Of a stretch of DNA of 64,000 nucleotides, positions 13,527 to 13,700 are shown piece by piece. The stretch comes from an uncultured bacterium. Its GTDB lineage: Bacteria; Chlamydiota; Chlamydiia; Chlamydiales; JAJFMA01. Position 1 is the stretch's first letter. Every line of letters starts with the position of its first letter. Both the position numbers and the translations under genes were made by a program. The notes under the pieces were generated by a model that was not told the DNA's origin, searched no databases, and saw only the letters and a list, made by a program, of their open reading frames with translations. Location: NCBI GenBank assembly GCA_964436955.1, contig CAYTFC010000003.1:4159-68158 (forward strand), given 5' to 3'.

Positions 13527-13700
13527 GTCCTTTATGTCTTTTCTCCTAAGTCCTTTAGGTCTTTTACGTCATTTTGGTCTTTTTAAGATGGTTGGTAGCT
13601 CCGTACTTTTACCACTCTAATATTAAAAAGGACCAAAAGGACAAAGGACCAAAAGGACGTAAAAGACCTAAAGGACTTAGGAAAAGGACCTAAAGGACGA
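13527..13700. repeat. ~175-bp imperfect palindrome (element A) built from AAGGAC/GTCCTT units
   Basis: 13544-13570 is the exact reverse complement of 13656-13682 (27 bp); arms extend with few mismatches; right arm carries 7 AAGGAC cores in 76 nt. Confidence 0.8.

Follow-up and report, generated by a model that had tools for sequence, protein, structure and literature searches.

Short palindromes that recur between bacterial genes fall into several described classes. Repetitive extragenic palindromic (REP) sequences, and the REPINs with which they are grouped here, are species-specific, are built of 20–40-nt units with a conserved tetranucleotide head, and go with a Y1 (HUH) transposase, RAYT; miniature inverted-repeat transposable elements (MITEs) include forms with internally repetitive ends, such as Correia/NEMIS and RPE, to which the sub-terminal hexamers of Ac/Ds may be compared; and the 23S rRNA intervening sequences (IVSs) of Leptospira and Coxiella, which lie inside rRNA helices and are excised by RNase III, consist of a long inverted-repeat stem with a four-helix-bundle open reading frame (ORF; S23p/PF05635) in the 'loop'. 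The element described here, element A, is an intergenic palindrome of AAGGAC-type repeats at positions 13527–13700 of a 64,000-nt stretch (hereafter the window; contig CAYTFC010000003.1, positions 4,159–68,158) from an uncultured member of the Chlamydiales, and lies between kdsC and the mcsA–mcsB operon. Comparison with related loci and with similar arrays in other phyla suggests, with a probability that we put at about 55%, that it is a solitary, gene-less copy of a REP/MITE-like class of dispersed intergenic nonamer-array palindromes.

Element A is an imperfect palindrome of 174 nt, in which a left arm of six GTCYTTT units, pyrimidine-rich on the + strand (13527–13583; GTCCTTTAT, GTCTTTTCTCCTAA, GTCCTTTAG, GTCTTTTAC, GTCATTTTG and GTCTTTT), is separated by a spacer of ~43 nt (13584–13626), which holds a small internal stem and has neither repeat units nor an ORF, from a right arm of eight AAAGGAC-type units (13627–13699; AAAGGACCA, AAAGGACA, AAGGACCA, AAAGGACGT, AAAAGACCT, AAAGGACTTAGGA, AAAGGACCT and AAAGGACG), two more than on the left. 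A preliminary description of this DNA had noted a perfect core, and direct reading of the sequence agrees: the 27 nt at 13544–13570 are the exact reverse complement of the 27 nt at 13656–13682. The GTCCTT and GTCTTT complements that it placed in the left arm are likewise present, in two and three copies, together with a single GTCATT. Its arms of about 55 nt around a ~40-nt loop hold good as a structure, with dimensions that need adjusting, since an ungapped repeat finder gives arms of 43 nt at 93% complementarity (13541–13583/13643–13685) and pairing extends from 13527 to 13699 once a single indel is allowed. The right arm contains seven exact AAGGAC cores (at 13628, 13637, 13644, 13653, 13671, 13684 and 13693), as had been counted, and also one AAAGAC at 13662; their supposedly irregular spacing of 8–12 nt does not hold, because the intervals are 9, 7, 9, 9, 9, 13 and 9 nt, and with 9 nt in five of the seven the arms are better described as nonamer arrays in phase than as sets of irregularly spaced cores. 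Every right-arm unit has A as its preceding base, and relative to the left arm the right arm carries a 16-nt duplication, identical 9-mers being duplicated locally.

A hairpin or cruciform of great stability is predicted on both strands. Folding of the two, which the preliminary description had proposed, gave −93.6 kcal/mol for the + strand (z −11.8) and −91.4 kcal/mol for the − strand (z −10.9), and DNA parameters gave −52 kcal/mol (z −11.7), with none of 200 shuffles as stable in any of the three folds. The idea of a structured RNA survives as far as the predicted hairpin goes, and fails where a known family is concerned: at the gathering score, Rfam 15 finds three tRNAs only in the window and nothing over element A, which at E ≤ 10 gives sub-threshold matches to generic long-hairpin miRNA models only, and no family was found over the elements of 16 related loci. 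Strand asymmetry was also considered as a sign of RNA function and rejected, the + strand fold being just 4.5 kcal/mol better than that of the − strand (four against six G–U pairs) and arm length showing no bias relative to the upstream gene. Within the window the array is unique. The two-unit pattern AAGGACNNAAAGGAC, with up to one mismatch, has seven matches in 64 kb, all of them within element A (0.07 expected), and seven of the 21 occurrences of AAGGAC fall in the bin 13600–13799, no other 200-nt bin holding more than one. As a separate observation, a perfect 11-nt inverted repeat, TAAGAGATTGT/ACAATCTCTTA (13518–13528 and 13740–13750), brackets element A and reaches the −10 box of the downstream promoter candidate; its chance expectation in a 600-nt region is estimated at ~0.04.

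The McsB protein encoded in the window is matched best by proteins of uncultured Chlamydiales at 62%, 57% and 55% identity, and the mcsB loci of these three closest relatives (L361, L363 and L364; alignment A1) were compared with that of the window. Gene order in L361 is as in the window, with a kdsC–mcsA spacer of 152 nt; the spacer measures 47 nt in L363, and in L364 tRNA genes precede mcsA, with an upstream spacer of 431 nt. The AAGGAC array is absent from all three loci, each of which retains the −35/−10 block (invariant columns of the alignment) that in the window forms the mcsA promoter candidate TTTACA-17-TATAGT (13726–13754, + strand; 10/12 match), situated, as had been reported before, 26 nt beyond the end of element A. 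Without the element, the kdsC–mcsA spacer of the window would be ~132 nt long, near the 152 nt of L361; because the promoter block is kept where the palindrome is missing and the residual spacer resembles that of L361, element A appears to be a lineage-specific addition. The insertion, confined to this lineage, would have come to lie between the stop codon of kdsC and a pre-existing kdsC terminator and mcsA promoter, and hence outside the conserved mcsAB control region; the relatives are too diverged for the insertion point to be mapped on the alignment. Presence of AAGGAC palindromes varies among Chlamydiota at a second site too, since in a Chlamydiae metagenome-assembled genome (MAG) a palindrome (L118 7161–7265) follows the ortholog of window gene 22419–23192, where the window itself has a small GC hairpin only (22372–22418). 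Downstream of the promoter and outside the palindrome, a 5′-untranslated region (UTR) motif, GTG[C/T]CACTTACG (13774–13785, + strand), is kept in L361 and L364. Together with the promoter block TTTACA/TTGTACA-17-TATAGT it occupies 13726–13785 in the window, 5383–5448 in L361 and 5411–5476 in L364, and is conserved across three Chlamydiales lineages with just 55–62% McsB identity; the motif may be the true regulatory site of the mcsA–mcsB operon.

When one genome from each prokaryotic species was scanned for four AAGGAC units, with a first gap of 3 nt and the others of 1–8 nt, at least 120 loci were returned, where random sequence is estimated to give ~0.3 by chance. Of the motif clusters listed, about half are single-orientation and lie inside long open frames, that is, they are coding repeats; collagen-like or K-D-X repeats explain the single-orientation matches in Actinomycetota and others, as well as 169 of 169 viral-contig clusters, and do not explain the non-coding inverted arrays. 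The latter number at least 45, in at least five phyla, and have the form (AAGGACNNN)n – spacer – (NNNGTCCTT)n; their hosts are Thermoanaerobaculia and other Acidobacteriota, Sumerlaeota, Hydrogenedentota, Rhodanobacteraceae and Chlamydiota, eight loci coming from MAGs of the last, and several genomes among the matches listed hold more than one such locus. The unit of the family is [A/C]AAGGAC plus two free nt. Among the matches listed the 9-nt period accounts for 185 of 220 spacings (51 of 80 in Chlamydiota), and C or A precedes AAGGAC in ~88% of units, giving a GTCCTT[G/T] heptamer on the other strand. Each arm carries 3–20 phased copies, and the two arms are often unequal in length (4 vs 21 or 4 vs 11 units, for example). 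The inverted arrays mostly begin 2–50 nt past a stop codon, and crude gene calls, made in high-G+C loci by a third-position rule, put 13 of them in a convergent, 20 in a tandem and 3 in a divergent context. Element A shares these features: its units of [A/C]AAGGAC plus 2 nt lie mostly 9 nt apart in inverted arrays around a non-conserved spacer, and it is non-coding and starts 25 nt after the kdsC stop codon, within the ~50 nt usual for the family. A match to plasmid or phage DNA, which was considered as its origin, was not found by BLAST. The searchable literature yielded no description of AAGGAC nonamer-array palindromes, and the family is seemingly undescribed.

What is constrained in these elements appears to be the motif itself, and not the hairpin alone. 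Complementarity of the spacers between units in the two arms is partial, 16 of 41 elements beating spacer shuffles at z < −2 and several not doing so at all, and in many elements the hexamers alone give the stability, for which reason a perfect hairpin was rejected as the selected feature. At an orthologous site in two Acidobacteriota (L045 5047–5133 and L094 1619–1717), directly past the stop codon of orthologous genes, the hexamers are kept while the spacers and loop differ. Retention of the hexamers in register while spacers vary indicates a constraint on the motif and not merely on the hairpin, and a heptamer conserved in 9-nt register across phyla would imply recognition by a trans-acting factor. 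AAGGAC is not the sole heptamer of this architecture: L300 shows the same 7+2 inverted layout with CGTGAAT/ATTCACG, and at least four of its palindromes, built as (CGTGAATNN)n – spacer – (NNATTCACG)n, are surrounded by ordinary metabolic genes. Arrays in L300 lie at 2714–2838, 3479–3700, 5674–5810, 7679–7800 and 8413–8560, filling nearly every intergenic gap of a 10-kb stretch.

The 45 inverted arrays listed from the genome scan share one polarity, with the AAGGAC arm 5′ and the GTCCTT arm 3′, an arrangement that is identical when read on either strand; none is reversed. A targeted metagenome scan for the GTCYTT-first polarity of element A returned at least 118 loci. A single assembly, VFQP01 (G+C 0.44), accounts for at least about 70 of them, all of one ~150-nt family; the other ~48 listed are diverse (G+C 0.25–0.69) and include small families of several copies that have a loop in common (L248, L285). 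The ~70-copy family and these smaller ones indicate that GTCYTT-first elements behave as dispersed repeats. This polarity appears to be a minority form; the two polarities come from different scans, of a genome collection and of metagenomes, with counts that are lower bounds, so that their frequencies are not directly comparable. Members of the VFQP01 family (L243–L322 and later loci, e.g. L245 4912–5006) read ...CCTTYGTGC..GTCCTTTGTGTCCTTTGTGGTTTCAAA – loop – TTTGAAACCACAAAGGACACAAAGGAC..., with the loop in both orientations and a TAACC...GGTTA border that often provides the stop codon of the upstream gene.

A neighbour gene common to all elements was sought by all-against-all BLAST of flanking ORFs and rejected, the search giving only a four-helix-bundle gene at two loci, raised to three by tblastn. 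At these three loci, an AAGGAC-first element adjoins a gene of ~190 aa: L078 (Parachlamydiaceae), L112 (Thermoanaerobaculum) and L039 (Hydrogenedentota). The product matches the NCBIfam models TIGR04258, 'four helix bundle suffix domain' (74 bits; cut-off 40), and TIGR02436 (29 bits; cut-off 24), and falls just under threshold for Pfam PF05635, the 23S rRNA intervening sequence protein. The gene in L039 has one palindrome 21 nt ahead of its ATG and another copy, sharing the loop of the first, that starts within the final codons (...GRRT*); that in L112 is preceded at 30 nt by an AAGGAC array and followed past its stop by a full palindrome; and in L078, from a Chlamydiota MAG, the gene is truncated by the array. 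Linkage was tested independently on six more TIGR04258-type genes fetched by protein identity alone (L366 from a Geomonas silvestris isolate, L367, L371, L373 from Pirellulales, L376 from Verrucomicrobiota and L377), and all six have AAGGAC-type arrays no more than 200 nt from the gene ends. In L373 the gene lies within the palindrome, and in L377 three tandem copies begin in its last codons. Exact hexamers number 31 in ~2.5 kb of gene flanks, against 16 in the remaining 16.6 kb of the protein-fetched loci. The gene–array regions are L039 1100–2200, L112 4780–5620, L366 1840–2660, L371 1860–2000, L373 490–1240 and L377 1150–1540.

Across at least six phyla, TIGR04258 genes are thus found flanked by AAGGAC nonamer palindromes, embedded in them or ending within them, and it is the array itself that encodes the final codons (..KRT*, ..GRRT*). 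Arrays do not accompany all four-helix-bundle genes, since a shorter paralog without the suffix domain, located between hsdS and hsdR in a type I restriction-modification operon of Tangfeifania diversioriginum (L378 801–1211), has none. The protein family is large (at least 8000 matches at E < 1e-20) and ~70% identical across phyla, and its genes sit mostly on contigs of 1–3 kb. Its fold family includes Avd, the accessory protein of diversity-generating retroelements, and the S23p ORFs of 23S rRNA IVSs. No related solved structure is detectable by sequence, no known catalytic motif occurs in the ~190-aa protein, no recognisable transposase is present in the putative autonomous form, and no paper naming the protein was found in the searchable literature.

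On balance, element A is best placed among dispersed intergenic palindromes; the preliminary description had set such a repeat, scattered without regard to genes, against a functional role, and at the level of the family the comparative data point there. As a passenger in the kdsC 3′ UTR, for which we infer an insertion or mobility mechanism, the element would have an effect that is at most structural. Transcription reading through from kdsC would form a ~70-bp RNA hairpin in the 3′ UTR, a possible exonuclease barrier, RNase III substrate or transcription obstacle, and at the DNA level a cruciform could be extruded 26 nt upstream of the −35 box. For the family, a trans-acting factor may read the heptamer arrays, the best candidate being the TIGR04258 protein. 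A more specific and more tentative proposal is that AAGGAC/GTCCTT nonamer arrays are the recognition sites of that protein and that gene and arrays make up a horizontally spreading unit, selfish or regulatory, which would have deposited gene-less palindromes by the hundred at the ends of genes, element A possibly being one of them in the rarer reversed orientation.

Several observations weigh against placing element A in this class. Its GTCYTT arm comes first, opposite to 45 of the 45 elements listed from the genome scan and to every gene-linked copy, and no TIGR04258 gene was found in the 64-kb window, by tblastn, nor is there one in the 118 GTCYTT-first metagenome loci listed, so that only repeat unit and architecture would tie the element to the gene-linked family. 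Dispersed-repeat behaviour is seen for the class, and in this genome there is one copy within 64 kb. The flanks (...AGAGATT | ... | ACTAATA...) contain no direct repeat that could be a target-site duplication. Insertion in the window lineage is favoured over loss in the three relatives by parsimony, among loci as distant as 55–62% McsB identity. Finally, the family was found with an AAGGAC query, by which its uniformity is partly imposed.

The alternative that survives best, and which we consider unlikely, is that the arrays are functional sites for a sequence-specific nucleic-acid-binding protein with a present function at the kdsC–mcsA locus; at the level of the family this reading and the favoured one partly coincide. 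The reader could be an oligomeric Avd-like four-helix-bundle protein, with one heptamer per subunit, or a cold-shock-domain protein that opens or closes the hairpin by binding its GUCYUUK arm. The conserved heptamer with variable 2–3-nt spacers, both across phyla and at the orthologous site, and the gene–array linkage in nine loci would fit such a role, and the existence of another heptamer, CGTGAAT (L300), in an identical 7+2 layout suggests a class of readers with different specificities. CsrA sites contain A(N)GGA, as does the purine arm of the arrays. The opposite arm, GTC[C/T]TT[G/T], fits the single-strand consensus 5′-GTCTTTG/T-3′ of Bacillus subtilis CspB at 6–7 of 7 positions (PMC1904285); three left-arm units of element A are exactly GTCTTTT, and the others are one base off the CspB-type heptamer. 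Against binding at this locus, neither a cold-shock-domain gene nor a TIGR04258 gene occurs in the window or beside elements of the same polarity, and the polarity of element A is unlike that of the gene-linked form. Neither arm is in excess in the sense of the upstream gene (8 vs 8, with 3 equal, in 19 tandem-context elements). The CGTGAAT family speaks against a universal reader such as a cold-shock protein, and autoregulation by such proteins was rejected because no cold-shock-domain gene occurs in any of ~370 loci. Since neither the cold-shock nor the CsrA lead explains the CGTGAAT family, and no cold-shock-domain gene lies near the elements, the TIGR04258 protein ranks as the likelier reader.

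The preliminary description had suggested a strong terminator or insulator, and a role of element A in parting kdsC from the mcsA–mcsB operon looks improbable. Its position is suitable, 25 nt after the stop codon of kdsC and upstream of the next promoter, its predicted hairpin is extremely stable, and related AAGGAC-first elements of Chlamydiota (L118, L101) look like bidirectional intrinsic terminators, with an A-run, stem and U-run. Element A has no U-run after its stem on either strand, the + strand continuing with GACTAATACC and the − strand with AATCTCTTAG, and its polarity, with the U-rich arm 5′ and the A-rich arm 3′, runs opposite to that of the terminator-like elements. A simple terminator scan picked instead a small hairpin at 13706–13721, and this hairpin with its T-run (ACCAG-AGTTCG-CTGGT, then TTTCCTTT; 13706–13729, + strand), which abuts the −35 box, is the better candidate for the native kdsC terminator. 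Relatives manage without the palindrome and, like the window, have a small hairpin and T-run just before the −35 box; in L361, the closest, a short hairpin GGTT-ATACG-AACC occupies the corresponding position.

Still less probable is a neutral product of slippage or inverted duplication, or an assembly artefact, with no tie to a family and no function. Local duplication of identical 9-mers, seen in the 16-nt right-arm duplication of element A and also in L085 and L048, would suit slippage, which leaves unexplained the recurrence of one heptamer, its spacers free to vary, in phyla far apart and next to a single gene family. Of independent short-read assemblies of the same organism, L001 (window 12541–13532) stops at the edge of element A and L002 (window 14311–16240) begins near it, and AAGGAC-type repeats appear to break assemblies. 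An artefact or chimera is nevertheless unlikely in the window, because the arms are imperfect and unequal (six against eight units) and the element lies in the interior of a contig of ~71.5 kb.

Weakest of all is the proposal, akin to the binding-site array suggested in the preliminary description, that element A offers operator- or enhancer-like sites through which a regulator acts on the mcsA–mcsB stress-kinase operon. In its favour, the right arm does place direct repeats of a short motif in the region ~26–100 nt ahead of the −35 box that activators occupy, and Firmicutes control mcsAB by way of the CtsR box, a heptad direct repeat. Yet the three related loci keep the promoter and lack the element, which largely refutes the idea; the AAGGAC unit also follows unrelated genes in many phyla; and the likeness of GGTCTTT to GGTCAAA fails the consensus test, RGTCAAA-NAN-RGTCAAA (up to three mismatches) giving six matches in the window against 7.6 expected and none in 13503–13815.

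The window has a G+C content of 45%, and around element A its gene order is tsf, pyrH, frr, tRNA-Glu, tRNA-Lys, kdsC, element A, mcsA, mcsB and a glycosyl/glycerophosphate transferase-like gene. On the + strand, kdsC (12972–13502; TIGR01670, 173 bits) encodes 3-deoxy-D-manno-octulosonate (KDO) 8-phosphate phosphatase, and mcsA (13815–14342) starts with an ATG at 13815 preceded by GAGG and is followed downstream by mcsB (14332–15402). Three other large intergenic palindromes of unrelated sequence occur in the window, at 32551–32784 (arms of 73 nt at 93%), 27529–27778 (43 nt at 98%) and 52598–52722 (62 nt at 87%); none is built as a nonamer array, and the one at 27.5 kb holds several GAAACCCC...GGGGTTTC mini-hairpins. 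In a Chlamydiia MAG, Rfam places an Acido-Lenti-1 RNA (L097 2780–2824; 41.9 bits, gathering score 37) ~850 nt from an AAGGAC palindrome.

For the window, these comparisons indicate that the palindrome does not belong to the conserved control elements of the arginine-kinase stress operon, whose conserved parts are the promoter and the downstream 5′-UTR motif. More widely, inverted arrays with a phased 7+2 architecture are found again and again at the ends of genes in Acidobacteriota, Chlamydiota, Hydrogenedentota, Planctomycetota, Verrucomicrobiota, Desulfobacterota and others, in physical linkage with an orphan gene family that ranks among the most conserved in environmental bacteria. Were the TIGR04258 protein to read the arrays, this would give a very large orphan family its first function and a defined nucleic-acid ligand, and add a new kind of bacterial interspersed repeat to the REP/MITE/IVS spectrum; breakage of assemblies at the arrays would then explain why TIGR04258 genes are so often on very short contigs.

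Among known systems, the 11 GAG/UAG repeats bound by TRAP, the GGA repeats of CsrB/RsmZ and the CspB heptamer, which the pyrimidine arm resembles (PMC1904285), have in common with the AAGGAC arrays phased short motifs with free spacers; their motifs are single-stranded and unpaired with a complementary array, and their readers are known proteins, whereas that of the AAGGAC arrays is a candidate only. Inverted pairs of DNA uptake sequences (DUS) in Neisseria and of uptake signal sequences (USS) in Haemophilus are also protein-recognised short motifs that often lie just downstream of genes and double as terminators, but they have one copy per arm, are lineage-restricted and serve a known role in DNA uptake, in contrast to the 3–20 phased copies of the AAGGAC arrays in several phyla. 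The layout of IVSs is matched exactly by L373, with AAGGAC arrays as the stem; unlike IVSs, the AAGGAC elements are intergenic and mostly lack an ORF, and IVS stems are not known to contain nonamer arrays. As in MITEs, gene-less palindromes outnumber the gene-bearing form, families expand in bursts (~70 copies in VFQP01) and some copies supply or overlap stop codons, but element A has no visible target-site duplication and the putative autonomous form no recognisable transposase. With REP sequences and REPINs, finally, the elements share a short intergenic palindrome with a long hairpin, many copies per genome, a position after stop codons or between convergent genes, and a single-copy protein gene thought to serve many gene-less copies; what sets the AAGGAC family apart is its phased 7+2-nt arrays, a heptamer common to several phyla and the linked gene for a ~190-aa four-helix-bundle protein.

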